From a cyanobacterium endosymbiont of Epithemia turgida isolate EtSB Lake Yunoko (GTDB lineage: Bacteria > Cyanobacteriota > Cyanobacteriia > Cyanobacteriales > Microcystaceae), in the NCBI RefSeq assembly GCF_000829235.1, contig NZ_AP012549.1, forward strand, positions 2,310,001 through 2,342,000: DNA of 32,000 nt, in the 5' to 3' direction. Of this stretch, positions 4,156 through 28,599 are shown piece by piece. Below the pieces are notes generated by a model. That model had not been told where the DNA came from. It made no database searches and saw only the letters and a program-made list of their open reading frames with translations. How positions within the stretch are numbered: position 1 is the first letter of the stretch; every line of letters starts with the position of its first letter. A program made the position numbers and the translations under genes.

Positions 4156-4204
4156 AGCATCTAAGGATATGTCATCATAATTTAATGACATATCCTTAGA
4201 TGCT
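4156..4204. repeat. Perfect 20-bp inverted repeat with a 9-nt loop (AGCATCTAAGGATATGTCAT / ATGACATATCCTTAGATGCT)
   Basis: Checked base by base: 4156-4175 pairs with 4185-4204. About 160 nt downstream of the ilvD stop and followed by TTTGAG. Could be a terminator, but it is AT-rich and distant. Confidence 0.9.
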
Positions 4205-6390: not shown

Positions 6391-6442
6391 AATAAGCCAA
6401 ATTTTAGCTAATCTTACTAAATTGTTTAAAAAATAGAACAAT

Positions 6443-6479
6443 AACCAAAGATTTAGTATAATCTTTTTCTTTGGTTTTT
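6443..6479 (+). terminator. Putative intrinsic terminator downstream of the ATPase gene
   Basis: AACCAAAGA (6443-6451) pairs with TCTTTGGTT (6468-6476), followed by TTTA. 53 nt after the stop codon. AT-rich stem with a large loop. Confidence 0.4.
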
Positions 6480-7005
6480 ATCTGTCTGAAAATCTTCAGA
6501 GTATACTTAACTGATAATATAGAGCTAACTAGTGAAATACTAAATAAATAAACTTTGTAGTTTAAAATCAATTAAGCTTATTATAAATAGGCTTTTTGAC
6601 GCAGGTTAGGTAATTTAAATAGTTCTAAACCTGATTATTATTTTTATTAAAAAATTTCTAAATTTCTCTTGCAATAGTAATTTTTTGATAAAATTGGTTC
6701 AATTTATTTTTTTATCTTTTGTTTTAATATTTGTCATTTTTTTTTCGCTTGCTATTCCTTGTTATTGACTATTTACAAACAGCTGTGATGTGTTTTAGTT
6801 AAAATAAATATAAAGACTTTTTTCATATCCATAAAATCAGTAATTAAACGAAAACCTACATTAAGTTCTTTTTATTAAATTGCTTATTCAATAAGCCTAA
6901 CAGAAATTCTTGATATTCTTTTTTTAATATTTTCTGTTGAGTGCCATCCAATTTAATACAAGAGAAAACATTATCTCTTATTTTAACTTTGACTATTTTA
7001 AATGG

Positions 7006-7021
7006 ATGTAATTTATTACAT
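7006..7021. repeat. Palindrome ATGTAAT-TT-ATTACAT sharing its half-site with the repeats at 230-264
   Basis: Read directly; 7-bp arms with a 2-nt spacer. Confidence 0.5.
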
Positions 7022-7184
7022 TAAATTAATAGAATTGATAGATTAACTGACTGTAAAAATTTTTAAATTTTTATTCCTTCTTTTACTTCATGTTAGCTAA
7101 TTAAGATAGCCGGAATTAGAAAAATTTAGGCTTTTTTTATTTAAAAAATAATTTAACTTTTTTAAAAATTATTTTTATCTTATC

Positions 7185-7238
7185 TAATGTGCATAGATAG
7201 CTAAAAATATTAATATTTTTAGCTATCTATGCACATTA
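7185..7238. repeat. Perfect 54-bp palindrome (27 + 27 bp, no spacer)
   Basis: All 27 pairs from centre 7211|7212 outward are complementary: TAATGTGCATAGATAGCTAAAAATATT|AATATTTTTAGCTATCTATGCACATTA. The first mismatch is 7184/7239. Confidence 0.95.
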
Positions 7239-7570
7239 ATCACCATTCCATCTACTATTAGCCTTAATGTTAATCAATTAAGTAATATTTTTTGTGTTAA
7301 TGTCGTGGCTAATAGAATCACTATTAATTCGAATAAATAAGTGATAATTTTTCTTTTGTCTGACTACCGTTATTTATAAACTTTTTTATACCTTTAAACT
7401 TAGATGTAAACACATATATTTCTCTACGACTAATACTAATAAATTTTTAAAAAGAACTGCCTCAATTTATTGATTGAACTAAAATACCAATTGTAATCAC
7501 TAAAACAATAATTATATCAAACAACTTAATTGTTCTTCTTCTCTTTTAAAGAAAACTCTAAAATAATAAA

Positions 7571-7610
7571 CTAAAAAACTGGGTAATCAATTAATTTTCA
7601 TAACCCAGTT
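7571..7610 (-). terminator. Putative rho-independent terminator of the ctaCDE operon
   Basis: On the minus strand, about 30 nt after the ctaE stop: AACTGGGT, an 18-nt loop, ACCCAGTT, then TTTTAG. This gives an 8-bp stem (4 GC pairs) running into a 6-T tract. Confidence 0.5.
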
Positions 7611-7641
7611 AATTAAAATAAATCTAAGATTCTCCTAAACT

Positions 7642-8238
7642 CTACAAAAGATAAACCAAGGTAAAAAGGATAATCCAAACTATGTCCACAAAGTGCCAAT
7701 AAAGTTCTGCTGCCTCAACCCCAAAATGGGACTTACTAGAGTAATGTCCTTCTTCATTTGAACGCCACAATACTGCTAATATTAACAACAGACCAAAGGT
7801 AACATGAAGTCCGTGAAATCCAGTTAAAACGTAGAAACAACTGGCAAATAAATTAGTGGTTAATCCCATCTCTAGATGGAAGTACTCATACATCTGACCG
7901 ATAAGGAAAACAATACCCATAACGGACGTGATACTAAACCAGAACTTCAACCCAGAAACGTTATTATTCTTAATAGCAGCTTGACCCTTATGCATCACAA
8001 AACTACTAGCAACCAAAATTATTGTATTAATCCCAGGTAATAATAATTCTAATTCTGGTGTTCCCTCGGGAGGCCAAACAGGAATTATCGTGCGATAAAT
8101 AATAAAAGCAGCGAATAGTCCTAAAAAAATAGAACTTTCTGCTATTAGAAAAAGGGCAATCCCAAAAAAGCGATGGTCTGGATGGCCACTGTGAAGGTTA
8201 ACAGTTATTTGTGGCTGTTCAATTGTTGATCCTTGCAT
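7642..8238 (-). CDS. ctaE: Cytochrome c oxidase subunit III
   Basis: I start the ORF at the internal MQGSTIEQPQITVNLHSGHPDHRFFG; the 25 upstream codons of the tracked ORF look non-native. It has multiple TM helices and the conserved HGLHV and YWHFVD motifs. Confidence 0.9.
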   Translation of the reverse strand: MQGSTIEQPQITVNLHSGHPDHRFFGIALFLIAESSIFLGLFAAFIIYRTIIPVWPPEGTPELELLLPGINTIILVASSFVMHKGQAAIKNNNVSGLKFWFSITSVMGIVFLIGQMYEYFHLEMGLTTNLFASCFYVLTGFHGLHVTFGLLLILAVLWRSNEEGHYSSKSHFGVEAAELYWHFVDIVWIILFTLVYLL

Positions 8239-8341
8239 GACTATTGTTTTATGAAATAATAGTGACAGAGTAAATCTAAGACAAAAACAACGAAAAGAAT
8301 AGCGATCACGCATTATATAGATTAACCGTGATCGCTTTTGT

Positions 8342-10018
8342 TCATGAGCGGTATCTCAATTGAGAACCAACTTCTGCTAACATGTCGTCGACAGTCTCCT
8401 CTTCATTGACAACTTCCGAATCGGTACCGTAGTCGTAGGGACCTGTCCATAATACGGGTTCTTCTTCAAAGTTTTCAATGATGGGAGGAGAGGACGTTTG
8501 CCATTCTAGGGTATAGGCACGCCAGGGATTACGAGCAGCTTTTTCGCCTTGATTCAAACTCCAAAGGATATTGATAACAAAAGGAAGACTGGAAACAGCT
8601 AGAATGTAAGCCCCAATGGTGCAAATTAAATTGATGGGTTCAAACTGCACGTCATAAAGGGCAATACGACGATTCATCCCCATTAACCCCAATTTGTGCA
8701 TAGGTAAAAAGGTAATATTCAACCCAATGAACAGAAGAATAAAGTGCAATTTACCCAGAGGTTCATTAATCATCCGCCCCGTCATCTTAGGGAACCAATG
8801 ATAAAATCCGGCAAACAGTCCCATGGCTGCCCCACCGAAGAGGACATAATGAAAATGCCCAACTACAAAATAGGTATCATGGACGTGTATATTAAAGGGA
8901 ACAGAAGATAACATAACTCCCGTTAAGCCACCCATGACGAAGGTTGCAATGAACCCAACTCCAAACAACATGGCAGTATTGAGATTCAGTTTTCCACCCC
9001 AAAGGGTTGCACTCCAACTAAAGATCTTAATCCCTGTGGGAACAGCGATCAGCATAGTAGCCGCCATAAAGAAGATCCGTAACCATCCTGGTGTTCCACT
9101 GGTGAACATATGGTGCGCCCAAACAATTAACCCTAAAAAGCTAATAGCTAAACTAGAGTAGGCGATCGCTCGATAGCCAAAAATCGGTTTGCGAGAGTGG
9201 ACGGGTAATACTTCAGAAATAACGCCAAAAAAAGGCAGGATCATGATGTACACCGCCGGATGGGAGTAGAACCAGAACATATGCTGGTAAACAATCGGAT
9301 CTCCTCCTCCTGTAGGGTTAAAGAAAGCAGTTCCGGCAATAAGATCAAAAGAGAGAAGTACTAATGCCGCAGCTAAAACCGGGGTAGAAAGTAAAATTAG
9401 GGCTGAGGTCGCTAACATCGACCAGCAAAACAGAGGCATGCTGTGGAGATCCATGTCCGGAATCCGCATTTTGAAGATGGTAGTAACAAAATTAATTGCC
9501 CCCAAAATCGAGGAGGTTCCCACCAATAAAACGCTTAAGATCCAAATTTCTTCCCCCCAAACCCCGCTAACTAAACTCAGGGGAGGATAGGAAGTCCAAC
9601 CAGCCTGGGGAGCTCCATTAGGAACAAAAAAGCTGGCTAGCAAGAGAATACCCCCTGGAGGAGTCAACCAAAACGCCACCGCATTGAGGGTGGGAAAAGC
9701 CATATCTTCAGCCCCAATCATTAGGGGAATTAGATAATTAGCAAAAGCGGCCCCAGCCGGAACAATCCACAAGAAGATCATGATGGTTCCGTGGATGGTC
9801 ATAAATTGGTTATATAAGGCCGGGGTAACGAAATCGGGGTCTGCGGTGGCTAATTCCGTACGAATGACTTCCGCAAAAGCCCCACCGATGAAGTAGAAAG
9901 CGAAAGAAGTGACGAGGTATTGGATCCCAATTACCTTATGGTCGGTGCTAAAGGTAAAATAATCTGTCCACTTCCTTTCTTTATGTGCCGTATAGTTTGA
10001 TGCTACTACTGTTGTCAT
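8342..10018 (-). CDS. ctaD: Cytochrome c oxidase subunit I
   Basis: 558 aa with the canonical haem-copper oxidase core (WFYSHPAVY, GHFHYVL, HDTYFVVGHFHY). Contains a HIP1 site GCGATCGC at 9162-9169. Confidence 0.97.
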   Translation of the reverse strand: MTTVVASNYTAHKERKWTDYFTFSTDHKVIGIQYLVTSFAFYFIGGAFAEVIRTELATADPDFVTPALYNQFMTIHGTIMIFLWIVPAGAAFANYLIPLMIGAEDMAFPTLNAVAFWLTPPGGILLLASFFVPNGAPQAGWTSYPPLSLVSGVWGEEIWILSVLLVGTSSILGAINFVTTIFKMRIPDMDLHSMPLFCWSMLATSALILLSTPVLAAALVLLSFDLIAGTAFFNPTGGGDPIVYQHMFWFYSHPAVYIMILPFFGVISEVLPVHSRKPIFGYRAIAYSSLAISFLGLIVWAHHMFTSGTPGWLRIFFMAATMLIAVPTGIKIFSWSATLWGGKLNLNTAMLFGVGFIATFVMGGLTGVMLSSVPFNIHVHDTYFVVGHFHYVLFGGAAMGLFAGFYHWFPKMTGRMINEPLGKLHFILLFIGLNITFLPMHKLGLMGMNRRIALYDVQFEPINLICTIGAYILAVSSLPFVINILWSLNQGEKAARNPWRAYTLEWQTSSPPIIENFEEEPVLWTGPYDYGTDSEVVNEEETVDDMLAEVGSQLRYRS

Positions 10019-10170
10019 AGGACACTGAATGATACTTTAAAATGACTTAGAGATGGAATAGCCCAAATCAAGAATGATGATTTATAAGGTATATGGCAAT
10101 GTGCACTAAGTAAGGTGACGAACAAGAGTTGTTGTACTCAACATGTTCCTTGAGTCTTCTGCATGATCCT

Positions 10171-11106
10171 TTAGGGATGGGGTATTAGAGCTAAGGTTTC
10201 CTTGTCGATACCCATTTTGTGAGCGTAGGGGCGAAGGAACTCTCCCCCAGAGAGATTTTCGGGATTAACTGCTACTGTTTTATCCAAACTCGCTTTTTGA
10301 ATAGGTTTATTAGTTTCTTCCCATTGAGCATAAGTTTCTTCATCTTCAACGTGGAGAACAGATTTCATCCCACCATGGTAAGCTCCACATAGTTCAGCGC
10401 AGATAATGGGATAGTCTCCTTCGCGATTTGAGGTAAATGCTAAAGTCACATTTCGTCCAGGAATCGCATCTTGTTTAAGACGTAGTTGAGGAACCCAAAA
10501 GGCGTGTAGAACATCAGTTGCAGCAATAGTTAATTGAACGGGGCGATTTTTGGGAACATGAAGTTCTCCTGAAATGATTCCCGTCTCAGGATAAGTAAAA
10601 ACCCAAGCATATTGCATTCCTTGAACTTTTACCATGAGGGGAACAATTTCCCCGCTCTCATTAGCAGAGGTTCCAATTCCTAAGGCAACTTGCTTGTGAT
10701 TACCATCCATCGCAATTTGCTGAGGTGGGGTGTTATTAGAAATTAAGGGGTCAAGTCCCCCCATGTTGTCATAAACCTTGAAACTATAGAGAGCAAGGAC
10801 GAAAACGATAATGGTAGGAATAGCTGTCCAAAAAATTTCTAAAGGGACATTGCCTTCTATGGGCGGCCCGTCAGTTTGATCGTTGGGACGACGACGAAAT
10901 TTAATCAGACAAAATACAAGAGTCCCTTCCACTAGTAAAAAGAGGCCTATAGCAATGCTCATCATGAAATTGAAAATACTGTCTACTTGTGTGGCATCGT
11001 AAGATGCAGCTACTGGCATAAGTCCATGATTTTGACCGCACCAGAGACTAATTAGAGTGATTACGACACCAACAATAAGAGTGATGATATTACTGGGAAT
11101 CTTCAC
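10171..11106 (-). CDS. ctaC: Cytochrome c oxidase subunit II, CuA site present
   Basis: 311 aa with two N-terminal TM helices. DVLHAFWVP and CAELCGAYHGGM supply the CuA ligands, so this is a true cytochrome c oxidase rather than a quinol-oxidase-type subunit II. Confidence 0.95.
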   Translation of the reverse strand: MKIPSNIITLIVGVVITLISLWCGQNHGLMPVAASYDATQVDSIFNFMMSIAIGLFLLVEGTLVFCLIKFRRRPNDQTDGPPIEGNVPLEIFWTAIPTIIVFVLALYSFKVYDNMGGLDPLISNNTPPQQIAMDGNHKQVALGIGTSANESGEIVPLMVKVQGMQYAWVFTYPETGIISGELHVPKNRPVQLTIAATDVLHAFWVPQLRLKQDAIPGRNVTLAFTSNREGDYPIICAELCGAYHGGMKSVLHVEDEETYAQWEETNKPIQKASLDKTVAVNPENLSGGEFLRPYAHKMGIDKETLALIPHP

Positions 11107-11837: not shown

Positions 11838-13670
11838 TCAATTATACTGAGAGGGAGGAATTCCTTTCAGAAAAATCAACGCTTCAATTACCTTTCTTGC
11901 AATAGGCGCGGCCACTGTTGAGCCATAAGTATCTGCTCCTTGGGGTTCATCTACCACTGTCATAACCACATAGCGAGGATTATCTATCGGTACAATCGCC
12001 ACAAAACTTGTTATTTTCGCACTAGGTAAATACCCTCCCCTAGGACCCGCTTTTTGGGATGTCCCTGTTTTGCCTCCAATCCGATAGCCTGAAATTTGAG
12101 ATGCTTTCCCTGACCCATCAGTAACTACAGTTTCCATCATCTCTGCTACTTGCCGACTTACATGGGGTGACATAATCTGGGTAACTTTATGCTTGGGTTT
12201 CCAATGCAGATAACCATCAACATCAACTAATCCACGAACTAGATGGGGAGTCACTAATTTTCCTCCATTGGCCAACGCCCCATGTAATTGAACTAACTTG
12301 ATAGGAGTTAAGGACAGACCTTGTCCAAAAGAGGCTGTAGCTACTTCAATTCCTTTTTTAGTGAAGACTTCTTCACTTTTGAGATAACCACTCACTTCCC
12401 CTGGCAAATCAATTCCTGTTTTTTTATTAATTTGTAATTGCTGTAACCGTTGATAGTAATCTTTACGACTTAATCGCCGCATCATATGAACCATAGCTAC
12501 ATTACTAGAAGTTTGTAAAATTTTAGCAATGTTAATCGCTCCATGTCCTATTCTAGTAGCATTGTAGATATTCCAACCATCCACCTGCACCGCTCCAGAA
12601 TCGTGGATTACCGTATTTGGCTGGATCACTCCTGCTGTGAGGGCTAAAGCAACATTAATTGGTTTAAAAGTCGAGCCTGGTTCATAGAGATCAGTAACTG
12701 TCCAATTCTTAAATAGTTCTATTCTAGACTTATAGTATTTATTAGGATCAAAAGTTGGTTCACATACTAAAGATATCAACGAGCCATCAGTGCTATCCAT
12801 AATAATTACTGCTCCCCGTTTAGCATGAAATTTTTTCAATTGCTGTCGAAGAGCAACCCGTGCTGCTCTCTGTATCCGCATATCTAAGGTTAACTGCACT
12901 CGCATATCATTAGATTTCAGCAAATCTTGAGGTAAAAAAGCAGGAACAATCTCTCCTAAGGCAGTACGACGCACGTATAAACTTAGTAAATCTCGTTCCA
13001 ATAGCTTTTCCTGACTGCGTTCAATTCCTGCTTGGCCATTACGATCACTATCAACATAGCCAATCACCTCAGATACCATCTTTTCTTGAGGATAAAATCG
13101 AGTATAAGACTCGTTCAACTCCACCCCATCCAGACGCAATTTTTCAATTCTAGCCGCCTGTCCTTCTGTTAAACCACGAGCAATGGGAATGCCCGTATCA
13201 CGCTGTTTAAAACGCTCAAATAGTTGTTGCGGGGTTTTATCATCGAGGATAGGACTAAGTTTAGCAGCTACTTCTTCTTTAGTTATTTTAAATTGAATAG
13301 GATGGACATAAAGAATATGTGCGAGGCGATCAGTCGCCAAAACATTACCCTGACTGTCAATGATAGATCGTCGCGGAATATAAGGTCTTAAATTAACCGT
13401 TTGTTGTAATCGGGCTTTTTTTTGTAATTCTGGTGCTTGAACAATCTGTAATTGATATAGTTTCACCCCTAAGCCAATCATTGCTCCTATCAAGACTCCC
13501 CAAACTAATAAAAGTCTCAACTGGGGTAGGGCAGTTCTTTTTTTAGAACTAGAGACTGCCAAAAAACTTCGAGGAATACAGCCATACAAGGCTGATTTTC
13601 GAGGTAAACGACTTTTTCTATCTGGATATTTAGATCTAGATGAAAACCGCTTGAAGTTAGATCTACTCAT
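11838..13670 (-). CDS. ftsI: Peptidoglycan D,D-transpeptidase (class B PBP, FtsI/PBP2-type)
   Basis: 610 aa with an N-terminal TM anchor and the transpeptidase motifs STFK (GSTFKPIN), SSN (QTSSNVA) and KTGT (GGKTGTSQK). Directly downstream of an ftsL-like gene. Confidence 0.9.
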   Translation of the reverse strand: MSRSNFKRFSSRSKYPDRKSRLPRKSALYGCIPRSFLAVSSSKKRTALPQLRLLLVWGVLIGAMIGLGVKLYQLQIVQAPELQKKARLQQTVNLRPYIPRRSIIDSQGNVLATDRLAHILYVHPIQFKITKEEVAAKLSPILDDKTPQQLFERFKQRDTGIPIARGLTEGQAARIEKLRLDGVELNESYTRFYPQEKMVSEVIGYVDSDRNGQAGIERSQEKLLERDLLSLYVRRTALGEIVPAFLPQDLLKSNDMRVQLTLDMRIQRAARVALRQQLKKFHAKRGAVIIMDSTDGSLISLVCEPTFDPNKYYKSRIELFKNWTVTDLYEPGSTFKPINVALALTAGVIQPNTVIHDSGAVQVDGWNIYNATRIGHGAINIAKILQTSSNVAMVHMMRRLSRKDYYQRLQQLQINKKTGIDLPGEVSGYLKSEEVFTKKGIEVATASFGQGLSLTPIKLVQLHGALANGGKLVTPHLVRGLVDVDGYLHWKPKHKVTQIMSPHVSRQVAEMMETVVTDGSGKASQISGYRIGGKTGTSQKAGPRGGYLPSAKITSFVAIVPIDNPRYVVMTVVDEPQGADTYGSTVAAPIARKVIEALIFLKGIPPSQYN

Positions 13671-15140: not shown

Positions 15141-15902
15141 AATACTTAAGATTAAGGCTTCACTCCATTCTACTACTGCACCGTAGGTATCCCCTGTATG
15201 TCCACCTAAACGCTGATAAAACTAGAAACCATAATAGCAATAGTACTTCCAAGCACAGCTACCTTAACTCCCAATCACCAACGATGAACGTCGAAGAGAA
15301 TTAATAATCCACTGAGGGTTAATAAACTTCCTAATCCTAAAAACAGATCTTGGGGTAATTTTATGCTCTGTTTGTGAAATACGCCTTTACCGGTAGGTTT
15401 TAGGTAATGATAAAAAGTGATAGCAGCTACCTGTCCCGATCTTCCCCATTCTGCGGCTATCATTAACACCAACCAACGGTAACTGGTTATCTCACTTAAA
15501 GCAATGGTTTTTAACCCTAATACAACTACCGCGTCCATTACACCAAAAGTTCCGGCTACACTATCTTGCATAATTTTCAACCGACGAGTAGAATCAGTTG
15601 CCCCTAATCCATCAGCTGTATCGATAGCACCGTCTAGGTGTAATCCTCCCGTTAAAACAAGTTAAACAGCAACAATTGAAACACTACGGATGACTATGGG
15701 AAATCCCACAAAGTTTAAGCCCATATCTGCTAGTCCTAACCCTCCTCCGAGTAATATTCCTAGTAATGGAGACCATCGAGCTAGTTGTTGAAACAACTGT
15801 GTCCATCGGGAAGGAAGGGTAATAAATAATTGTATAAAATGTAATCGTGCCTAAAAATGTTTTCAAATCATATTCAAGATGTTGAACAAGTTTTTTAATC
15901 AT
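15117..15902 (-). pseudogene. cobS: Adenosylcobinamide-GDP ribazoletransferase (cobalamin synthase) pseudogene
   Basis: The minus-strand reading needs three frames. Frame a: MIKKLVQHLEYDLKTFLGTITFY... Frame b, after a shift near 15800: QLFQQLARWSPLLGILLGGGLGLADMGLNFVGFPIVIRSVSIVAV*LVLTGGLHLDGAIDTADGLGATDSTRRLKIMQDSVAGTFGV...DVHRW*, with TAA at 15662-15664 and TGA at 15275-15277. Frame c, after a shift near 15215: [34 protein letters not shown], stop at 15117-15119. GGLHLDG..DT.DG and GG.TGD..GA are CobS hallmarks. Confidence 0.85.
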
Positions 15903-16692
15903 TTAGATACAGTTGCGCATTAACCGAAATAATTTCTTTAAATGTTAGTAAATTTACTGATTATAAGTGGTTGGGGAACCATAAGTATTTTACCAACTAA
16001 CCCCTAAAATTTAGGTCAATCTGTAAGTCGCTAAACTTTAAAAAATATAAAATGTTAAAGATAGTTAAAAAAAGAGAGTAATAAATGTCAGGCTGCTCAG
16101 AAGTTCAGCTGACATGATTAGGAGAGTTAAAATTATAAAAGTTGACTTGTGCCCAAAATTTTCTTGCAAATTAGAGCGAAAACAGGAATTTTATGTTTAA
16201 CTTAAAAAAAGTTAAATTAATTGGCAACTTAGTAAAAGTATCAAAAAATTTTAAAAAATAATTTTTAATTGGATTGTTTAAAAAGTACAACTATTATAAA
16301 ATTTCTCGATAAATAAAAGAAAATCAATCTGGAAAAAGATGTATTTAATAGATATACAATTTATCCGAAAAAAGATTAAAATAATAATTTTAAATGGCTT
16401 AAAGTTAATTAAATATTTAAACAAAAGGAAACTAATTTAAACTAGATAATCAAATAATTTGTATTTGTTTATCGCTGTAAATAAAAACAAAAAAAATTAT
16501 AAAGATTCATTAATCTCATAAACATAAAAAAGCCAAAAACTAAAAAGTTTTATAAAATAAAGTAAATGGAACTCAGAAATACTGTCAGAATAAAGAAATA
16601 GATAAAATAATTATTTTTGATGATCACTCAGTGCGTACAAGTGCTTTAGTTAAAGCCCAACTAAGACAATAGACAGAAAAAGGTTATATTGA

Positions 16693-16756
16693 TTATTTCT
16701 ACTATCTTCCTTATAGTCACCAATAAAAGTTACTATAAGAAAGATAGTAGAAATAA
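16693..16756. repeat. 25-bp inverted repeat with one mismatch and a 14-nt loop
   Basis: 16693-16717 pairs with 16732-16756, checked pairwise. The only mismatch is 16709/16740. Confidence 0.9.
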
Positions 16757-16824
16757 AAACTCATTAAATTGCCGGGAATATACATAAAAATGAATATTAT
16801 TTAGCTAAATAAATAATGTTCATT

Positions 16825-16923
16825 TCAAGAGGGTCACTCTAAACAATATTAACTAAATTGATATAAATCAAACTCTAATTACTGAAGTATAAAGATACGA
16901 AATAATTCCCTTTTTCAAAGTTT
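16825..16923 (+). repeat. Copy B of a paralogous AT-rich noncoding element (partner at 20260-20343)
   Basis: Hand alignment. Shared blocks are TCAA.AG.G..ACT.TA.A.AAT.TTA, AACTCTAAT, TATAAAGATAC, AATAATT, CTTTTT and AAA.TTT. I count about 78% identity over the ~58-nt core and about 68% in the 5' part. Copy B carries a ~13-14-nt insertion (TAAATTGATATAAA). Confidence 0.6.
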
Positions 16924-17134
16924 ATTTAAAGCTGCTTACTTAGCATAAGTATAAAGTAGATAACAATTTGAAAACAAGACTACCTTGAGTTATCTCTCGT
17001 CAAAACTTTAAGAAATAATCATGGGATCTTGGATTAGGATTGTATGGTAAGGAATTACTCTTACTCGTACATCACCGCCCATTAATTATTTACCGTTAGG
17101 TTAAATTAATGGTCGTATCTATAGGCAATTTCCC

Positions 17135-17598: not shown

Positions 17599-19287
17599 TT
17601 ACATCGATTCAACTTGATTGGTTCTAGATTGGTGACTGCAGATTAGAGTGTGTACCCGCCATTGAAGAGAGGATTTAGGATAATCAATTCGATAATGTCC
17701 TCCACGACTTTCTGTTCGAAACAAGGCACTTTTTAAGATCAAGTAGGCAATATCCAGTAAATTTAAGGTTTCTGCACAAGTTCGTAGATGAGTGTGTGCT
17801 GTAGGAGAGTCAAAAACTATCTGTTGGCCAGGTTCTAAGTTCAGCACATATTGACTACTGTCGATATGCGTTAATTGTTCTCGCCAGTCTTTAACTTGGT
17901 CTAAAGCCGTTTGTAATAAACTTTGTTCTCGACAAATTCCTGCACTTTTCCAGAGTAAATTTGGTAAATCTCGATTAATCTTCTTGAGCAATTCTATTTC
18001 TGTGGTCCATTCTCCCTTTTTCCTTACAACCGAAACCTTGTATGGACTGATTGTCTGTGGTGAATTCACTTCGATGTTGGATAACTGCGCGGCAAACACC
18101 AAGCACTCTAACAGAGAATTACTGGCTAAACGATTTGCTCCATGAACTCCTGTACTAGCAGTTTCTCCAATAGCATAGAGTCCCTTAATAGAAGTCTCAT
18201 TCTTAAGATTTACGCAAATGCCCCCCATCCAGTAATGGGCAGCTGGAGCCACAGGAATTGGCTCTTTAAACACATCTATCCCCCAATTTCGACATACCTG
18301 AATAATATTAGGAAAACGACGGCGAATTCGCTCAGATTCGATGGGACGTAAATCAAGGTAAACATAGTCGTGGGCAGGATTTACTGCCGTTTTTTGTAAG
18401 TGACTAAAAATAGCACGACTAACTACATCCCTGGGAGCTAACTCCCCATTTGGATGATAATCAAAAGTAAAGCGTCGCCCTTGGTGATCGATTAAGTGTG
18501 CTCCTTCTCCCCGCACTGCTTCACTAATAAGAAAATGAGGAGCATTATGTTTAATTAAAGCTGTTGGATGAAACTGAAAAAACTCTAGGTCCTTGAGGAC
18601 GGCTCCTCCTCGCCAAGCTAAAGCCACACCATCCCCTGTACTAACAGTAGGATTAGTCGTTTGAGCATAAACTCGACCGCCTCCACCGGTGGCTAAAATT
18701 ACCGCAGATGAGCGAACCCAATGAATTTGTCTTTGATATAGAACACTGACCCCTAGACATTGTTTTTGCAGAGAATCAAGCCACAATTTTAAAGCAACTG
18801 CTTGAGAAATAATTGTAATGTTGGAGCGTTCTAATACCTTCTCTGTGAGAGTACTAATGATTGCCCGTCCTGTAGTATCTGCTGCATGAAGCACACGAGG
18901 ATGAGAATGGGCAGCTTCTAGAGTCATAGCCAATTGGCTATTTTTTCGGTCAAATGCTACTCCCATTTTCACTAAAGAATCAATCGCGCTAGGGGCTTCA
19001 TTAACAAGGAATTCCACAGCACTATAATCACACAATTGAACACCCGCTTTGAGGGTATCTTCTAGATGAAATTGTGGAGAATCGTTAGCAGCGATCGCTG
19101 CTGCAATTCCTCCCTGCGCCCAATCACTAGCTCCTGTTTTTAAGGTATCTTTGGTGATTAATCCAACTCGATACTTTGGGGGCAAACACAAGGCACCATA
19201 CAGTCCAGCTGCCCCTGAACCCACTACTAAAATATCAAATTGGGTTGTCAGAAGGTCAGCAGAAACAAGATTAGCTGATGATATCAA
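17599..19287 (-). CDS. nadB: L-aspartate oxidase
   Basis: 562 aa. FAD-binding DILVVGSGAAGL, HYWMGG and the RGGHYR-type C-terminal region are typical of NadB in the succinate dehydrogenase/fumarate reductase flavoprotein family. HIP1 site at 19091-19098. Confidence 0.95.
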   Translation of the reverse strand: MISSANLVSADLLTTQFDILVVGSGAAGLYGALCLPPKYRVGLITKDTLKTGASDWAQGGIAAAIAANDSPQFHLEDTLKAGVQLCDYSAVEFLVNEAPSAIDSLVKMGVAFDRKNSQLAMTLEAAHSHPRVLHAADTTGRAIISTLTEKVLERSNITIISQAVALKLWLDSLQKQCLGVSVLYQRQIHWVRSSAVILATGGGGRVYAQTTNPTVSTGDGVALAWRGGAVLKDLEFFQFHPTALIKHNAPHFLISEAVRGEGAHLIDHQGRRFTFDYHPNGELAPRDVVSRAIFSHLQKTAVNPAHDYVYLDLRPIESERIRRRFPNIIQVCRNWGIDVFKEPIPVAPAAHYWMGGICVNLKNETSIKGLYAIGETASTGVHGANRLASNSLLECLVFAAQLSNIEVNSPQTISPYKVSVVRKKGEWTTEIELLKKINRDLPNLLWKSAGICREQSLLQTALDQVKDWREQLTHIDSSQYVLNLEPGQQIVFDSPTAHTHLRTCAETLNLLDIAYLILKSALFRTESRGGHYRIDYPKSSLQWRVHTLICSHQSRTNQVESM

Positions 19288-19408
19288 AGTAATAAAAAAT
19301 GGTTGTCTATAAATTTTTTTTATTTTAACTTTTTTATCCTAGCCGCAGTCTTTCATCATTTTGGTTTGTTAATTAAATAACTCAAAAAATCCTCAGTTAA
19401 GAGTATTT

Positions 19409-19879
19409 TTATGAAAAAACTATTATTTTAATTAAATATTGATTAACAGCTTGGTCTAAACGCTCATTTTCTTCTGTTGCTTCAAGGGCAAGAAGAGTTA
19501 CTAACATATTTGGATGTTTTTCCAGTTTTTACTGAGTCCAGATATTTCTAAAATCTATTTCACCTCTAGAATAAGGAGAGTTAACAATAATATTACTGGC
19601 TAGGTCAGGATGGAAATCACTTAATTCCAAAAACTAACGAATATTGCTGTTGTTTAAATTAAACTTTTTAGCATATTTTTTTGAGCATATAGAGTTAACT
19701 TTGTATCTATTAGGTTTAAAGTAGGTGTAGCTAATACCTGTTTCACAAATACCTAAACAACTAATTATTACAACTGAGATAGCGATAATACAAACTAAGG
19801 TTTTCATTGATTGAATTTCTCTCAATAAACTAAGATAATTTATCTTCTTAAACGATAAGCAAAAAATTCGGTTCGTCAA
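19409..19879 (-). pseudogene. Possible pseudogene of a small exported protein (two in-frame stops)
   Basis: One minus-strand frame reads ...MKTLVCIIAISVVIISCLG...NLNNSNIR*FLELSDFHPDLASNIIVNSPYSRGEIDFRNIWTQ*KLEKHPNMLVTLLALEATEENERLDQAVNQYLIKIIVFS*. Stops are at 19634-19636 and 19529-19531, with the terminal stop at 19409-19411. The downstream part looks protein-like but I recognise no family. Confidence 0.3.
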
Positions 19880-20259
19880 TAAAAACAGATTAAGATGAGT
19901 TCGGTTTGTATTATGTTAGAAACAAATCCAATAGCTTCGAATTCTTTTCAGATTAGGGGTGTAGGGGAAAAAGCGGCTAACTAATTAGAAATCTGTAATA
20001 ATTCAAGAAAAAGTTAAAAGAAGTCTTAAGCTGCTTTTTTCTCTATGATACTGTGGGTTTGTTTATTGTTGTTATCTCAGAGTAGCTTTTAAGACTGCTC
20101 AATGCTGCTTCGATTCCGCGATAACTCGATTTTAAATCAGTCTATTTTTTCTATTGTTCATATTTATGGTTATATCTATATTTACTTTCTACCAGTTTAT
20201 ATCTAGAACCAAACATGATCTACATATTATTTGACTAAGACAATTGAAAAAAGTATTGC

Positions 20260-20343
20260 TCAAAGGAGTTACTTTACAAAATTAATTCAACTCTAATAGC
20301 TCATAATATAAAGATACACAATAATTTGCTTTTTTAAATGTTT
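20260..20343 (+). repeat. Copy A of the paralogous noncoding element (partner at 16825-16923)
   Basis: See copy B. Lies in the ORF-free DNA downstream of ndhD. Confidence 0.6.
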
Positions 20344-20523
20344 CTTCAGGGTTACCCACTCATAGGTTTAAGAAAATAAAATGGTTCTCTGAACCGATTA
20401 TGGCAAAATTATGATAAACAAAAGCTAAAAATGAAGTTTTTGTTTATTAATCTGTTATACATAGTCTATGTAAACCAATAAAACTGCTTAATCATAAGTC
20501 AAATATTTCTATATTTCTTATTT

Positions 20524-22029
20524 CTATCTTTTTTCTGTCCGCCACTGCTGCATAACAACAGTAATGTCTGGCTTTCTTGTCAATAAAATACCTACTTGGG
20601 TTTCATTCCAACGTACCATCCAAGAAGGTTGAAATCCCAAAACTACAATACAAAAAGATAAGACAAAAGCAGGAATTCTTTCTGACCACAAAACACGGGG
20701 TAATTGAGCTAATTCAGGACTTAAGCGACCAAAAAAGACACGGTTAATCATCAATGAGAAATAAACTGCCGTTAAACCATTTCCAACTAAACATAATAAA
20801 GTTTGAATCGGAAAAATAGGAAAGCTCCCGCGAAATACTAAAAACTCTGCGATAAAACCAGCCATCCCTGGAATTCCAATGCTCGCCATTACTCCTAAAA
20901 TCATTAAACTTCCTGTAATCGGTAAACCCCGTTGAGGGTTGAGCAACCCCTGTAAAAAGTCCACATCACGGCTTCCGGTCTTTTTATAAACTATTCCCAC
21001 TAACAGAAATAATAGGGCAGAAATTAATCCGTGACTAACCATCTGAAAAGTAGCGGCAGTAACACTTAAGTGAGTGGCAGCCGCCGCAGCTAATAAGATA
21101 TAGCCCATATGAGCAATAGAAGAATAGGCGACCACTTTCTTCATATCTTTTTGAATAATTGCGCATGATGCCCCATACAGAACATTAATAGCAGCCAATG
21201 TAGCTAACCATGGAGCTATAAATACCCAAGCATCGACAAACAATCCTATCCCAAAACGTAATAACCCGTAAGTTCCTAATTTCAATAGTATTCCTGCCAA
21301 CAACACTGAAATAGGGGTAGAAGCTTCCACGTGGGCATCAGGTAACCAAGTGTGGAAAGGGAAAATGGGTATTTTAATCCCTAAACCAAGCATAAGGGGG
21401 GCTAGTAAAATTAACTGAGTTGATAAAGGTAAGGTATGGGTGCGTAATACTTCATAATCAAAGTTAGATAACTCTGAGAGCCATGCTAATCCTAAAAATG
21501 AAGTCAAAATTAGAATTCCTGAAACTGTTGTAGAGAGAAGAAATTTCATCGAGGCATAACCCCGCTTTGTTCCTCCCCAAATTCCAATGAGAAAATACAA
21601 GGGGATAATTTCTAACTCAAAAAAGAGAAAAAAGAGTAAAATATTTTGGGCAATAAATGCCCCCATTACCCCACTATTAAGAATTAAAATCAAGACATAA
21701 TAAAACCGTGATCGCTTAATAGTTTGACTACTAGTATAAATCGAGATTAAGGTCAGCAAACTGTTGAGAAAAATCAGAGGAAATGATAGTCCATCAATAC
21801 CCAAATAATAATTTAACCCAATCTTCGTAATCCAAGGTAAATACTCAGTAAATTGAATATTTGGATTATTAGGGTCAAAATTAAAGCTAAGAATAATATT
21901 GATAAGGAGAGGTATACTTGCGATTACTATAGCCAACAATCGACAATGGACTGAATTTAACTTTCCTGGCCAAACAGCGATTAGGATAGCTCCTACTAAT
22001 GGAATCCAAATCAAGGCGCTGAGTATCAT
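20524..22029 (-). CDS. ndhD: NAD(P)H-quinone oxidoreductase chain 4 (NdhD), D3/D4 (CO2-uptake) type judged by context
   Basis: 501 aa polytopic NuoM/NdhD-family protein (GIDGLSFPLIFLNSLLT, LFFLFFELEIIPLYFLIGIWGG, HTWLPDAHVEA). It follows an F3/F4-type ndhF after a 43-nt gap. Confidence 0.9.
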   Translation of the reverse strand: MILSALIWIPLVGAILIAVWPGKLNSVHCRLLAIVIASIPLLINIILSFNFDPNNPNIQFTEYLPWITKIGLNYYLGIDGLSFPLIFLNSLLTLISIYTSSQTIKRSRFYYVLILILNSGVMGAFIAQNILLFFLFFELEIIPLYFLIGIWGGTKRGYASMKFLLSTTVSGILILTSFLGLAWLSELSNFDYEVLRTHTLPLSTQLILLAPLMLGLGIKIPIFPFHTWLPDAHVEASTPISVLLAGILLKLGTYGLLRFGIGLFVDAWVFIAPWLATLAAINVLYGASCAIIQKDMKKVVAYSSIAHMGYILLAAAAATHLSVTAATFQMVSHGLISALLFLLVGIVYKKTGSRDVDFLQGLLNPQRGLPITGSLMILGVMASIGIPGMAGFIAEFLVFRGSFPIFPIQTLLCLVGNGLTAVYFSLMINRVFFGRLSPELAQLPRVLWSERIPAFVLSFCIVVLGFQPSWMVRWNETQVGILLTRKPDITVVMQQWRTEKR

Positions 22030-22072
22030 TAATACATCGACTCCTTCCTGCTACTAAAAATTTAAATTAACT

Positions 22073-23968
22073 TCAATAAATTAAAGATGACCAATAGTTA
22101 ATCATCATTCCCCACTCTTCACTAATAAAAAAACACACCAATAAACTTACTCCGATTAAAATGGTTAAGATGTAAAATTGTGATTGTCCAGATACATTAT
22201 ATTTTAAAATATTACCACTAAAAATAGTAGCTAAACCCACTAAATTAACTACTCCATCTACTACATGGCGATCAAACCAAACAGTCAAATAAGATATTTT
22301 TTCTACTGCTGCTACCACCGTTACTTCATAAACACGGTTGAGGTAAAAGTTATGAGCAAATAAATCTTGAAAAAACCGCAGATACAATTGAGTCGGCCGA
22401 GTCCAAGACCTTCGTAGGGGACTAACAATTCCAAGGAGACAACCAATGATTCCTGACCCAATTGAAAGGGGAATTGCCCATTGAACAATGATAATGTCTT
22501 TATCGGTAAAAGGTGGTACAGCTGATAACCAAAATGTCCAGCGAATTGGAACAATAGAAGAAATTAGAGTTGTTAAGGTTAACATTACCATCGGAAAAGC
22601 TATCGGCCAGGCAACTTCGGGAGTTCGACGGGTTTTAGGCTGAGGATTTCCTAGAAATACTAAACGGAATACACGGGTTAAATTCCAAGAACACAACAAA
22701 TTTACAAATAGGACAATTGCACATAACCATTTAGGAACATTCCAATCACCATTAAACCACCGTTGTAATGTCCAAAACATTCCTAAAGGTAACAATGCAA
22801 CTAATCCTGCAGCACCTGTCATAAAACTGATAGTAGTAGCGGGCATCCTTGCCCAAATTCCTCCCATTTCTGTTATATTTTGACTATAGGTCGTTAAAAT
22901 AACCGCTCCTGCACTCATAAATAATAAAGCTTTAGTGATCGCATGGATAAAAACTAATAATAAAGCAATATCGACTTGACCTAATCCAACAGCAATAAAG
23001 ACCAATCCCAAATAAGCACTGGTGGAATGGGATAGGGTTCGTTTGATATCAATTTGTGCTAAAGCCATCAACGAAGTTCCTACCGCCGTTACTGACCCTA
23101 ATATGATTAGTACCGCAGAAGATACGGGGGATAGGGTAAACACGGGTTGTAATTTAATTAACACATAAGCTCCAGCAGAAACTACTACCGAATTTCGCAT
23201 AATTCCGGCAGGGTTCGGTCCTTCCATCGCTTTATCAAGCCATAGATTAAGCGGAAATTGAGCACATTTACCTGTAGGCCCAGCGATCAACGATATTCCT
23301 AATAACGCTGCCGTTAAAGGGGCTAGATTTGAGTTAATTGCCCATTTTTCGAGTTCAGAAAAGGTCAACCCTTCTCCATAACTAGAAAGAGTAACTAATC
23401 CCATTAATAAAATAATATCCCCCACACGCTTGGTTAAAAACGCATCTCTGGCCGCAGTCGCTACTAACGGTTGAGCGTACCAGAAACCGACTAAAAGGTA
23501 TGTAGACAGAGTAAGAATTTCTAAAAGCCCATAACTCAGCAATAAAGAATCACTGAGAGCAATTCCGCCTAAAGCCGCTTCAAATATTCCTATTAATCCG
23601 AAAAATCTAGCTAAAGACCAATCTTTTTCCAGATAACCTAGAGCATAAAATTGAGCAAGTAGGCTAATTCCGTTAACTAATCCCAACGCTCCTAAACTAA
23701 TTGGAGACAGTTCTATGGTCAAGGACAAATCTAAATCAGCTACCTGAAGCCATTGAAATATTAGTTGTTCAGGTTGGTGTCCCCAAATAACATAAAAAGC
23801 TAATAAACTGTGAATAAAGGCAATACTTATCATTAATAGACTCAGGTAGGCCGCTGGTCTAGGTCCTGTGTGACGAATGATTCCTAAAGACCAGGGTAGG
23901 GTTAACACCGAACCAATTAGACTGTAAATCGGGATTAACCAACTACTGTGTACAATAAAACTGCTCAT
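22073..23968 (-). CDS. ndhF: NAD(P)H-quinone oxidoreductase chain 5 (NdhF), F3/F4 (CO2-uptake) type
   Basis: 631 aa NuoL/NdhF family. The N-terminus SSWLIPIYSLIGSVLTLPWSLGIIRHTGPRPAAY and LVGFWYAQPLVATAARDAFLTKRVGD resemble the short NdhF3/F4 class rather than the longer NdhF1, from recollection. Divergent from the ccm/rbc cluster. Confidence 0.88.
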   Translation of the reverse strand: MSSFIVHSSWLIPIYSLIGSVLTLPWSLGIIRHTGPRPAAYLSLLMISIAFIHSLLAFYVIWGHQPEQLIFQWLQVADLDLSLTIELSPISLGALGLVNGISLLAQFYALGYLEKDWSLARFFGLIGIFEAALGGIALSDSLLLSYGLLEILTLSTYLLVGFWYAQPLVATAARDAFLTKRVGDIILLMGLVTLSSYGEGLTFSELEKWAINSNLAPLTAALLGISLIAGPTGKCAQFPLNLWLDKAMEGPNPAGIMRNSVVVSAGAYVLIKLQPVFTLSPVSSAVLIILGSVTAVGTSLMALAQIDIKRTLSHSTSAYLGLVFIAVGLGQVDIALLLVFIHAITKALLFMSAGAVILTTYSQNITEMGGIWARMPATTISFMTGAAGLVALLPLGMFWTLQRWFNGDWNVPKWLCAIVLFVNLLCSWNLTRVFRLVFLGNPQPKTRRTPEVAWPIAFPMVMLTLTTLISSIVPIRWTFWLSAVPPFTDKDIIIVQWAIPLSIGSGIIGCLLGIVSPLRRSWTRPTQLYLRFFQDLFAHNFYLNRVYEVTVVAAVEKISYLTVWFDRHVVDGVVNLVGLATIFSGNILKYNVSGQSQFYILTILIGVSLLVCFFISEEWGMMINYWSSLIY

Positions 23969-24558
23969 CTAAAGTAGATTATTTAAGGGTCTTTACTTTT
24001 ATAGAGCATATCAGTTTTTATACTTAGTTTCTACTTCATATAAATAGGAAGTCCCAATTTTCCGGACAAGTAAAGCCGAATCGATTCCCGTCGACTATGA
24101 CATATCAATAGCCGGGTTTTTAGAAAGTCTTTTGAGCATTGTTATTGTTTTTAAATTTTCTCTGACTTTTAGTTATCAAATTCATTAAACTGATTGACAT
24201 GATTGACAAGTATAATAAGTTATCTATACTTTCTTTCAAAAGGTAAATTATAGAGGGTTAGTTAATAGCTTAAATACTGTTTAAATTCAAAAAATACATC
24301 CTCATCCAAACTAAATTAGATAGAGATTAAACTAATTATTATTAATTAAACTATTGAATAGTTATTCTGATACTCTATCATTAGATAGCATAAATAAAAT
24401 ATAAAATAGTTTAATTTTCTCCAAAAATAACAAAAGATTAGTATAAGCACATATTTATAAGTTTTGTATTAGTTATTAACTTTTACTAATTATAATTTTC
24501 AAAAATATAATAGTAATTTCTATTGTAAAAGGTACCACGTTTGCCTATTCTTTAATAT

Positions 24559-24804: not shown

Positions 24805-25105
24805 ATGCCAATTGCCGTTGGAATGATTGAAATAAAAGGGTTTCCTACCGTTGTAGAAGCGGCGGATGCTATAATGGACAAAGCTGCCCGTGTCACCGTT
24901 ATTGTTACGAGGCGATGTATCTGAAGTATAAGTTTCAGTATCCGCAGGAATTGAAAATGCCGGCCGCGTCAATTGTGGACAAGGTTTCTCAACCCATATT
25001 ATTGCCCGTCTACACGACAACCTAGAATACTTATTATTCATTCCTTATACCAAAGCCGTAGAACAATTGTGCGAAAGTATCAATCTTCCTTTAAGAGGAG
25101 TATGA
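24805..25105 (+). pseudogene. ccmK: Carboxysome shell protein CcmK pseudogene (CcmK1-like, with C-terminal extension)
   Basis: MPIAVGMIEIKGFPTVVEAADAIMDKAARVT|VIV. About 13 codons ([13 protein letters not shown]) are missing at ~24897. After a +1 shift near 24906-24910 it reads [64 protein letters not shown], with TAA at 24929-24931. The tracked minus-strand ORF 24703-25041 is antisense to this. Confidence 0.85.
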
Positions 25106-25128: not shown

Positions 25129-25391
25129 ATGTAAATTGCTGAAGTTAAAGATACCGTCGTCAGAACTGTAGTTTAACAAGACTTAAGCTCCTATTAGTAC
25201 AGTTTATGGATGTTCAAGGTTAATATTAAATAGCAGGAGACATTGTGTATGCAAGGCTTAAGAAATGAGTCTTAGTATCAAGAGAAAGTGCTGCTTCTGC
25301 CGAAATATCTAAACCTTTACAGGAAACTAAATTAGAAATAAATAGGTTTTCTACTAATCATAATGACTTGATTTCTTTACCTTCAATATAA
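25129..25391 (+). pseudogene. ccmL: Carboxysome vertex protein CcmL pseudogene
   Basis: M*IAEVKDTVVRT (TAA at 25132-25134), compared with the MQIAKVRGTVVST-type N-terminus. After a frameshift it reads RLKLLLVQFMDVQG*Y*IAGDIVYARLKK*VLVSRESAASAEISKPLQ, compared with LRGVKLLLLQFVDEEG...EWVLVSRGSAARQ. Confidence 0.7.
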
Positions 25392-25397
25392 ACAAAA

Positions 25398-25625
25398 TTG
25401 GTGGTTAATCGCCCTATTGACAATGACTCTATTTCTAATAGCAATAATTTTTCTCATCATCTGCAAACGACTAAAGAGAAAGAAACTGATTTTTTAGTGG
25501 AAGACATAGAATATATTTTGTTAGAAAAGACAACCACAATTGAAGAGAATACCGAAATTATGAAACAAACTAACCCCAATCCAGCTTCACCAGTAGAGAA
25601 ACCCAATTCTCCTATTATCGGATAA
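25398..25625 (+). pseudogene. Possible 5' stub of ccmM fused to unrelated or eroded sequence
   Basis: It starts 6 nt after the ccmL remnant as (TTG)VVNRPIDNDSISNSNNFSHH. This loosely recalls a CcmM N-terminus (MVVR....NID....H.FSN). The remaining 50 aa are unrecognisable. Mostly a positional argument. Confidence 0.25.
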
Positions 25626-26297
25626 ATTTATATCAACAAGCTTTTATGTACTTTGTTCCCTGAAAGTCAAGCTTTTAATCGTTATCAATAATATAAATTG
25701 TTATGAGTATTAATGAGTAATTAGCCACAATATTGGTTTTTTTGCCGGAAGTAATGAGATTAAATAGTAGATAATTATATGATTTATTTTTTTTAGTATG
25801 ATTGATAATCATCTCTTTTATAAAAAATTTGGTTTTGTTAGTCACTCATTTTCTTTGAATAAACTTCTTATCTCTAAGTTCTTTAACCTGTCTTCTCTGA
25901 CTAAGTTAGTCTTATAGAGACTTTATTTTTTATTTTTTCACTGTTAAAGGAACAACTTGATGAGCAAGAATCTTTAAATATACTAAATAAATTCTAAATT
26001 TTTGAAAAAATGTAGAAAAAAAAATAAAAAGCTGTCACTTAAAATGCATTAATTACCTCAATTATTCTGTCTATACATCGTAATCAAAAAATTATGAATA
26101 AGCAATAAATAAAGCACAACTATCTATGATATGATTGGGGCTTGAAGAACGAATAAGCAAAATAACGGTGAGCTAAATACCACTTCTAGCGACTGAATAA
26201 CTTCTTAAAATATTTTCTCTATTGCGGGTAGGTTCAGACTTAACTTTTATACAGATCAATGAGAAATTAATCATACCATTCATGGAGGAATTATTAT

Positions 26298-27722
<1,425 letters not shown>

Positions 27723-28253: not shown

Positions 28254-28599
28254 ATGAAAACTTTACCTAAAGAGCGTCGTTACGAAACCTTTTTTTACCT
28301 ACCTCCATTAACTGATCAACAAATTACCAAGCAAATTGAGAATATGTTAGATCAAGGGTTTATTGCTGGAGTTGAGTTTGAATAAAATCCTGATCCTAGA
28401 ACCTATTTATGGACAATGTGGAAGTTGTCTTTGTTTAGCTTTATTTAGTGCTTCTTACGCCGAGGAAGTGTGAGCAGAAGTCCGTAAATGTAGTTCTGAG
28501 TATCCCAATTCCTATATTCTTATGATTGCTTTTGACAATATCAAATAATGTTAAATCATAAGCCTTATTGTTCATAAGCCCAACACTCATGGATATTAA
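28254..28599 (+). pseudogene. rbcS: RuBisCO small subunit pseudogene
   Basis: [60 protein letters not shown], with TAA at 28383-28385. After a frameshift it reads SYAEEV*AEVRKCSSEYPNSYILMIAFDNIK*C*IISLIVHKPNTHGY*. Confidence 0.9.

Follow-up and report, generated by a model that had tools for sequence, protein, structure and literature searches.

The NDH-1MS' complex (NDH-1_4) consists of NdhD4 (sll0027), NdhF4 (sll0026), and CupB/ChpX (slr1302) on the NDH-1M core and provides constitutive, low-affinity CO2 uptake. A related complex, NDH-1MS (NDH-1_3), carries NdhD3, NdhF3, CupA, and CupS and has a solved structure (6TJV), and NDH-1L, the form active in respiration and cyclic electron flow, carries NdhD1 and NdhF1 on the common NDH-1M core. 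Both NDH-1_3 and NDH-1_4 have been regarded solely as components of the CO2-concentrating mechanism. In this study, we analyzed 32 kb of the genome of the cyanobacterial endosymbiont of the diatom Epithemia turgida (isolate EtSB Lake Yunoko, contig NZ_AP012549.1, positions 2,310,001 to 2,342,000; hereafter, the window), which has 35% G+C and in which intact genes are interspersed with gene wreckage; an identical contig is present in the Logan assembly of SRR29904087. The window contains an intact and constrained ndhF-ndhD pair of the NDH-1MS' type next to the remains of RuBisCO and carboxysome genes. The core question is why nitrogen-fixing endosymbionts that do not fix CO2 keep only the NDH-1_4 module of the CO2-concentrating machinery.

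Compared with NDH-1MS', the two window proteins are orthologous and full-length, with Lys346 and the CupB- or lipid-contacting residues of NdhF conserved. The gene order ndhF-ndhD is shared too, and the two genes point away from ccmK, a layout also seen in four related loci (L082, L087, L088, and L090). However, unlike the hosts of NDH-1MS', the window host is devoid of RuBisCO, carboxysomes, bicarbonate transporters, and photosystems, and therefore the complex can neither serve a CO2-concentrating mechanism nor be driven by cyclic electron flow. Two further differences are that no cupB was found in the window or in three further loci (L084 to L086) and that the crown endosymbionts carry an E246K replacement in NdhF. 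NDH-1MS has the same architecture and is the closest solved structure, but its subunits are paralogous rather than orthologous to the window pair, and its gene cluster is listed as lost in all diatom endosymbionts (PMC12903740). NDH-1L has the NDH-1M core in common and would feed the same chain of plastoquinone, cytochrome b6f, and cytochrome oxidase, whereas its NdhD1 and NdhF1 are only distant relatives of the window pair.

Both genes (Table 1) are uninterrupted from start to stop, covering 3402 nucleotides (nt) jointly, and their products have the lengths of free-living orthologues (631 amino acids [aa] for NdhF and 494-507 aa for NdhD). The initial annotation of this locus had read them as fully open frames of 631 and 501 codons, and its coordinates and lengths were exact. 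It had also placed them in the NdhF3/F4-NdhD3/D4 class and called for a phylogeny with NdhF1- and NdhD1-type subunits; the class was upheld by profile scores and structure matches and could be narrowed to F4/D4. The window NdhF scores 946 bits on NF005633 and 913 bits on TIGR01960 ("ndhF3_CO2"; cutoff 588.7), which is a model of the NdhF3/F4 family and does not discriminate F3 from F4. Models of the respiratory type (NdhD1/NdhF1, NDH-1L) are not passed: the score on the NdhF1-type model NF005626 is 274 bits (cutoff 963), and that on NF009212 is 415 (cutoff 645). Against solved structures, NdhF matches NdhF3 of NDH-1MS (6TJV_F) with 520 bits and NdhF1 of NDH-1L (6HUM) with 239 bits, and NdhD matches 6TJV_D with 527 bits and NdhD1 (6HUM) with 304 bits. 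Thus, both proteins are of the CO2-uptake class rather than the respiratory D1/F1 class.

Types 3 and 4 were labeled by sorting related loci according to the cup gene that follows ndhD. The CupA label was given to a 440-aa neighbor with a full-length match to T. elongatus CupA (716 bits), and the CupB-type label to a 379-aa neighbor that matches the same protein in two pieces (347 bits). In a neighbor-joining tree, the window NdhD falls within the cupB-linked clade (79% bootstrap), whereas cupA-linked sequences form a clade of their own (100%); the NdhF tree, which is unrooted, establishes only the separation of the cupB-linked and cupA-linked groups. Identities to the cupB-linked set are 61-69% for NdhD and 60-72% for NdhF, versus 54-57% and 48-49% to the cupA-linked set. 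The window NdhD also passes NF005060 (PRK06473) with 875 bits (cutoff 747), a model passed by cupB-linked NdhD controls (831 and 860) and failed by a cupA-linked one (738). By contrast, it fails NF005611 (683, cutoff 764), which only cupA-linked NdhD passes. In addition, the window NdhF carries the F4-specific central Lys346, where the cupA-linked NdhF (F3 type) in the alignment has Met. F350 is present as well. Lys346, R37, Y41, E114, D116, and W454 occur with the same numbering in the window and other endosymbionts; all of these except Lys346 are reported NdhF4 contacts to CupB or a bridging lipid in NDH-1MS' of T. vestitus (bioRxiv 10.64898/2026.08.03.742399). Table S2 of PMC12903740 lists the Rippkaea genes Cyan8802-1619/1620 as ndhD4/ndhF4, orthologous to sll0027/sll0026. 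On this sequence evidence, the pair is ndhF4/ndhD4, of the constitutive low-affinity NDH-1MS' type.

The opposite assignment, in which the pair would be the inducible high-affinity ndhF3/ndhD3 with cupA and cupS deleted just downstream, could appeal to the name of TIGR01960 ("ndhF3 family") and to NDH-1MS as the best structure, neither of which separates F3 from F4. We give it next to no credence and rejected it on the tree, the identity values, the NCBIfam cutoffs, and Lys346; moreover, a separate ndhD3-ndhF3-cupA cluster (Cyan8802-4309 to -4312) is recorded as lost in all endosymbionts (PMC12903740).

Selection was estimated as the ratio of nonsynonymous to synonymous substitution rates (dN/dS; pairwise Nei-Gojobori method) between the window, L086, and L084 as representatives of three endosymbionts, with unsaturated dS values of 0.24-0.31. 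The values for ndhF4 and ndhD4 (Table 1) are far below 1, so that the dN/dS check proposed by the initial annotation shows constraint to be still acting; endosymbiont core genes have a mean of 0.173 (preprint 10.64898/2026.03.19.712447). By these ratios, purifying selection on the pair is as strong as that on the housekeeping neighbors. Of the alignment columns without variation among free-living orthologues, the window also keeps 152 of 158 for NdhF4 and 141 of 143 for NdhD4. Directly upstream of ndhF4, a 70-nt block, presumed to hold the promoter and 5' leader, is 90-94% identical among the three endosymbionts, whereas the 250 nt further upstream are only 52-74% identical. The ndhF4-ndhD4 pair is a selected and presumably expressed operon in a cell without CO2 fixation.

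The pair lies on the strand opposite to a dead ccm/rbc cluster, as the initial annotation had described; remnants of ccmK, ccmL, rbcL, and rbcS were mapped there, beginning about 840 nt upstream of ndhF. These dead genes have collected about 8.3 disabling lesions per kb, which predicts about 28 in ndhF and ndhD together; none was observed (Poisson P of about 6e-13), in line with the contrast already drawn between the intact pair and its decayed neighbors. One option raised at that time was that ndhF and ndhD are simply the next genes to decay, that is, unconstrained relics not yet struck by a disabling mutation. The position beside the dead cluster and a textbook role that serves CO2 fixation would fit such relics. 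Nevertheless, this explanation is refuted by the absence of lesions, dN/dS values of 0.12-0.17 versus 0.56-1.13 for the dead neighbors, the conserved block upstream of ndhF4, and orthologues that are intact in all sampled endosymbionts.

Sequence similarity indicates which organisms share the pair. The window NdhD is 97% identical to a JGI metagenome protein, 92% to the proteins of the Rhopalodia gibberula and R. yunnanensis endosymbionts, 90% to that of the R. musculus endosymbiont, 88% to that of Cyanobacterium sp. uoEpiScrs1, and 79% to those of free-living Rippkaea orientalis PCC 8801 and Crocosphaera subtropica ATCC 51142. Judged from this ranking, the window host is a non-photosynthetic, nitrogen-fixing endosymbiont (spheroid body or diazoplast) of a rhopalodiacean diatom. 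Intact orthologues of the pair occur in the endosymbionts of R. gibberula, R. yunnanensis, and R. musculus, in uoEpiScrs1, and in two Logan assemblies; overall, ndhF4/ndhD4 were intact at every endosymbiont locus examined, which covers at least seven independent diatom endosymbiont genomes. Table S2 of PMC12903740 likewise records ndhD4/ndhF4 as retained in EtSB, RgSB, EpSB, EcSB, RaSB, and EaSB (6/6) and in UCYN-A (ucynA-01490 and ucynA-01510). According to the same source, endosymbionts have lost or broken ndhD2, ndhD3, ndhF3, cupA, cupS, cmpABCD, bicA, sbtA, ccaA, the ccm genes, and rbcLS, and the six diatom endosymbionts keep ndhD1/ndhF1, the NDH-1 core (ndhA-N), cytochrome b6f, two cytochrome oxidases, and ppc. 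As the pair is intact, selected, and retained across endosymbionts with dead CO2-fixation genes, ndhF4/ndhD4 perform a job independent of RuBisCO, carboxysome, and bicarbonate transporter. In that table, UCYN-A is also without RuBisCO and carboxysome, and its locus numbering leaves space for one gene between ndhD4 and ndhF4.

With about even confidence, we propose that this job is that of a working NDH-1MS'-type module that takes part in respiration and, through a CupB encoded elsewhere, in bicarbonate supply. NdhD4 and NdhF4 would form the distal membrane module that docks on NDH-1M and turns this common core into the constitutive NDH-1MS' (NDH-1_4). The complex would move electrons from reduced ferredoxin to plastoquinone, which would feed cytochrome b6f as well as the intact oxidase of cytochrome c and so yield ATP and oxygen scavenging for nitrogenase, with NdhD4 acting as the proton exporter. 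Less securely, CupB may still cap NdhF4, in which case the complex would also hydrate respiratory CO2 to bicarbonate for phosphoenolpyruvate (PEP) carboxylase, carbamoyl-phosphate synthase, and acetyl-CoA carboxylase. The endosymbiont would still require bicarbonate, although it is without CcaA, SbtA, BicA, and CmpABCD. The lumenal proton exit of NdhF4 has been reported to be blocked, whereas that of NdhF1 is open, and NdhF4 has been proposed either to relay to NdhD4 a proton taken over at the CupB site or to drop out of the path at high bicarbonate (bioRxiv 10.64898/2026.08.03.742399). Membrane attachment of CupB requires both NdhD4 and NdhF4 (PMC5853218).

For this proposal, cupB should be present in the endosymbiont genome, and we consider it somewhat probable that it is retained at another place. 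In Rippkaea PCC 8801 and GCA_002110465.1 (L090), which are the nearest free-living relatives, the gene is not linked to ndhD4. CupA and CupS, but not CupB, are named in the published record of core proteins missing from every one of these endosymbionts, and ppc is retained in all diatom endosymbionts (PMC12903740). Furthermore, the NdhF4 residues R37, Y41, E114, D116, and W454, which contact CupB or lipid, are all conserved in the window. For these reasons, cupB may be encoded elsewhere. The same points on linkage, loss list, and contact residues favor the bicarbonate-supply reading, as does the consideration that a unique function best explains a second NDH-1 beside NDH-1L.

Several observations weigh on the other side. 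First, cupB was absent by tblastn from the 32-kb window and loci L084 to L086, a search of low power and hence weak evidence. Second, none of 221 retrieved CupB proteins exceeded 86% identity to the nearest free-living CupB, and a metagenome scan with that protein gave a best identity of 79%, both again at low power; a scan of viral contigs for CupB gave no match. In two CupB protein searches, all of the matches listed (120 each) were at least 74-76% identical, and the range expected of endosymbionts lay below their reach. Third, UCYN-A keeps the pair while ppc is absent from its table entry (PMC12903740), and therefore the supply of PEP carboxylase cannot be the whole reason for retention. 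Fourth, NdhF of the three most derived (crown) endosymbionts (the window, L084, and L086) carries E246K, a charge reversal that changes LWLDEAMEGP, a motif common to all antiporter-like subunits, into LWLDKAMEGP, and L086 NdhF also has D245G. Codon 246 corresponds to window positions 23231-23233, and Glu is invariant at this site in 22 free-living NdhF4, three NdhF3, L085, and L090. E246K could mark an altered proton path.

These same observations lend themselves to another explanation, which we regard as possible but doubtful: cupB has been lost, and NdhD4 and NdhF4 alone complete a respiratory variant of NDH-1. The initial annotation had likewise suggested co-option of the subunits, for example as an additional proton-pumping arm of respiratory NDH-1, and this idea stays a serious rival. 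Because the lumenal exit of NdhF4 is reported to be blocked, such a variant would export fewer protons per electron than NDH-1L and could turn over against a high proton-motive force, which would suit rapid O2 consumption around nitrogenase. It would agree with the failure of the low-power searches to reach cupB in endosymbiont DNA or protein, with the loss of all other CO2-concentrating parts and the retention of the pair in UCYN-A without ppc (PMC12903740), and with E246K (plus D245G in one lineage) at an invariant acidic NdhF4 motif in crown endosymbionts only. NdhD4 may also draw a cytoplasmic proton and bypass NdhF4 and CupB, so that plastoquinone turnover and pumping continue (bioRxiv 10.64898/2026.08.03.742399), and ndhD deletions lower the trans-thylakoid proton gradient in Synechocystis (PMC5853218). 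On the other hand, NDH-1L (ndhD1/ndhF1) is also retained according to the published table, so a second, weaker pump needs a special reason, and cupB is not on the all-endosymbiont loss list (PMC12903740). In addition, the CO2-uptake forms of Synechocystis add little to proton pumping, the CupB-contact residues of NdhF4 are unchanged, and the explanation presupposes that NdhD4 and NdhF4 are stable without CupB. A more specific version is somewhat unlikely: that NdhD4/NdhF4 without Cup constitute an unrecognized, "low-gear" respiratory NDH-1 tied to the protection or powering of nitrogenase in diatom endosymbionts and UCYN-A, with E246K as part of the re-purposing. The bicarbonate-supplying NDH-1MS' module therefore stays our favored reading.

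The DNA downstream of ndhD4 bears on where a cup gene could have been. Positions 19880-20523 contain no open reading frame (ORF) above 34 aa, and tblastn with 18 CupA/CupB proteins across the whole 32-kb window gave no match below E = 0.4, in agreement with the initial annotation, which had seen neither an ORF nor a Cup-like reading there. Its expectation of a cup gene of about 1.3 kb after ndhD was, however, misplaced, since the two closest free-living relatives have none at this site. Its statement that the Cup partner is dead or absent is likewise not established, as cupB could be intact at another place in the genome. The genes that come after ndhD4 in Rippkaea orientalis PCC 8801 are one for a glycosyltransferase and folD, and the CupB-type protein (P0287) has its gene at a different site, outside the 10 kb around ndhD4. 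In GCA_002110465.1 (L090), whose NdhD is 86% identical to that of the window, psbU is present and the rbc/ccm cluster is intact; rbcS-rbcX-rbcL-ccmN-M-L-K-K occupy one strand, with ndhF4-ndhD4-hyp192-hyp285-hyp159-psbU-nadB opposite, and cupB is 130 kb from ndhD4 on the same contig. In some other cyanobacteria (L087, L088, and many others), ndhF4-ndhD4-cupB run on the strand opposite to ccmK.

Since tblastn remnants in the window match L090 genes in syntenic order, the empty DNA is evidently the grave of psbU and hypothetical genes rather than that of a cup gene. The psbU remnant is 41% identical to L090 PsbU across residues 1-119, with pieces in the small ORFs 19634-19879 and 19529-19630. A hyp159 remnant is also present at the syntenic position elsewhere (E = 1e-10 in L085 and 5e-6 in L084), and in all three of L084, L085, and L086 remnants of both genes occupy the corresponding location. 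A remnant of a cup gene or of the Rippkaea GT61 glycosyltransferase gene was considered as the content of the ndhD-nadB stretch and ruled out, as tblastn with Cup proteins and this glycosyltransferase found no match there in any of four endosymbiont-type loci. From ndhD4 to nadB, the decayed spacer measures 1.24 kb in the window (19288-20523) versus 2.8, 2.4, and 2.1 kb in L084, L085, and L086; deletional shrinkage of dead DNA seems further advanced in the window lineage.

Table 1. Features in and around the ndhF4-ndhD4 locus (window coordinates; dN/dS among the three endosymbionts unless a partner is named)
Feature	Coordinates	Strand	Description	dN/dS
ndhF4	22073..23968	-	Intact, 631 aa; distal antiporter-like subunit of NDH-1MS' (NDH-1_4)	0.12-0.17
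ndhD4	20524..22029	-	Intact, 501 aa; 43 nt downstream of ndhF4, same strand	0.13-0.16
Conserved 70-nt block	23969..24038	-	Directly upstream of ndhF4 start; presumed promoter and 5' leader	
Terminator-like hairpin and T run	20383..20395	-	About 130 nt past ndhD4 stop; candidate from consensus scan only	
hyp159 remnant	20085..20165	-	Hypothetical gene, 159 aa in L090; tblastn E = 0.003	
psbU pseudogene	19454..19807	-	Photosystem II extrinsic protein; tblastn with L090 PsbU, E = 7e-15	
ccmK pseudogene	24805..25103	+	Dead; frameshift, 36-38-nt deletion, in-frame stop (blastn/MAFFT vs L090 ccmK1, ccmK2)	0.70 (vs L086)
ccmL pseudogene remnant	25129..25295	+	Dead	1.13 (vs L086)
ccmN			Dead	0.95
rbcL pseudogene	26298..27722	+	Dead; 4 frameshifting indels, 3 in-frame stops	0.56 (vs L084)
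rbcS pseudogene	28254..28599	+	Dead; 10-nt indel, 4 in-frame stops	0.80 (vs L084)
nadB	17599..19287	-	Intact; L-aspartate oxidase, next live gene, selection control; NF005636 972 bits	0.10-0.13
ftsI			Intact	0.12-0.18
ctaC-ctaD-ctaE	7642..11106	-	Intact; aa3-type cytochrome c oxidase, terminal acceptor for electrons from NDH-1; TIGR02866, TIGR02891, and CtaE models match	

The genes themselves are ordinary members of the ndhF4/ndhD4 family, and their retention is moderately surprising. That sister endosymbionts keep the pair can already be read from a supplementary table published in 2026 (PMC12903740, Table S2). The main texts of the literature searched contain no discussion of ndh/cup genes in diatom endosymbionts or UCYN-A, and the supplements of three further papers contain nothing on these genes. 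In the diatom symbionts, the F4/D4 module alone survives, and RuBisCO, carboxysomes, bicarbonate transporters, ndhD3/ndhF3/cupA, and photosystems are lost or broken. They thus offer a natural experiment, which shows that the module has a function outside CO2 fixation, with housekeeping bicarbonate supply and a distinct respiratory mode around nitrogenase as the candidates. The answer bears on how nitrogen-fixing organelles are powered and on the debate over the way in which NdhF4, NdhD4, and CupB link the movement of protons to the hydration of CO2.

Within the dead cluster, a single remnant is left of the ccmK2-ccmK1 pair. The rbcL pseudogene is 85% identical to L090 rbcL at the nucleotide level, and its fragments match Pfam RuBisCO_large. 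No remnant of ccmM or ccmN, which follow ccmL in relatives, was detectable by blastn anywhere in the window; the gap between the ccmL remnant and the rbcL pseudogene (25296-26297) is about 1 kb, where relatives carry about 2.8 kb of ccmM and ccmN, and remnants of both genes remain recognizable in L084 and L086. No Rfam family and no tRNA was detected in scans of the whole window, and the number of terminator- or promoter-like sites in the region, by consensus scan, was not above that in shuffled sequence.

Decay is visible in other parts of the window as well. Only a 101-aa fragment of cobS (cobalamin-5-phosphate synthase) is left at 15275-15580 on the minus strand, whereas L084, L085, and L086 each have a complete cobS (261-267 aa) in this position, and its loss in the window looks lineage-specific. 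Positions 1001-2000, 6001-8000, and 16001-17000 have a G+C fraction of 0.21-0.27 and no ORF of at least 80 aa and are probably further gene graves. Finally, the L085 locus (ENA ERZ25042306, ctg3475l, 3,097,436 bp; locus 680-7247 and 13100-13560; 37.8% G+C) branches between L090 and the endosymbiont trio. Its gene order is that of the endosymbionts (ndhD4, decayed gap, nadB, cobS, ftsI, and ctaC), and its psbU is broken by stops and frameshifts. Its rbcL, rbcS, ccmK1/K2, ccmL, ccmM, and ccmN are intact, with dN/dS values of 0.02-0.03 versus L090 for rbcL, rbcS, and ccmK. L085 may represent a lineage at an early stage of losing photosynthesis.

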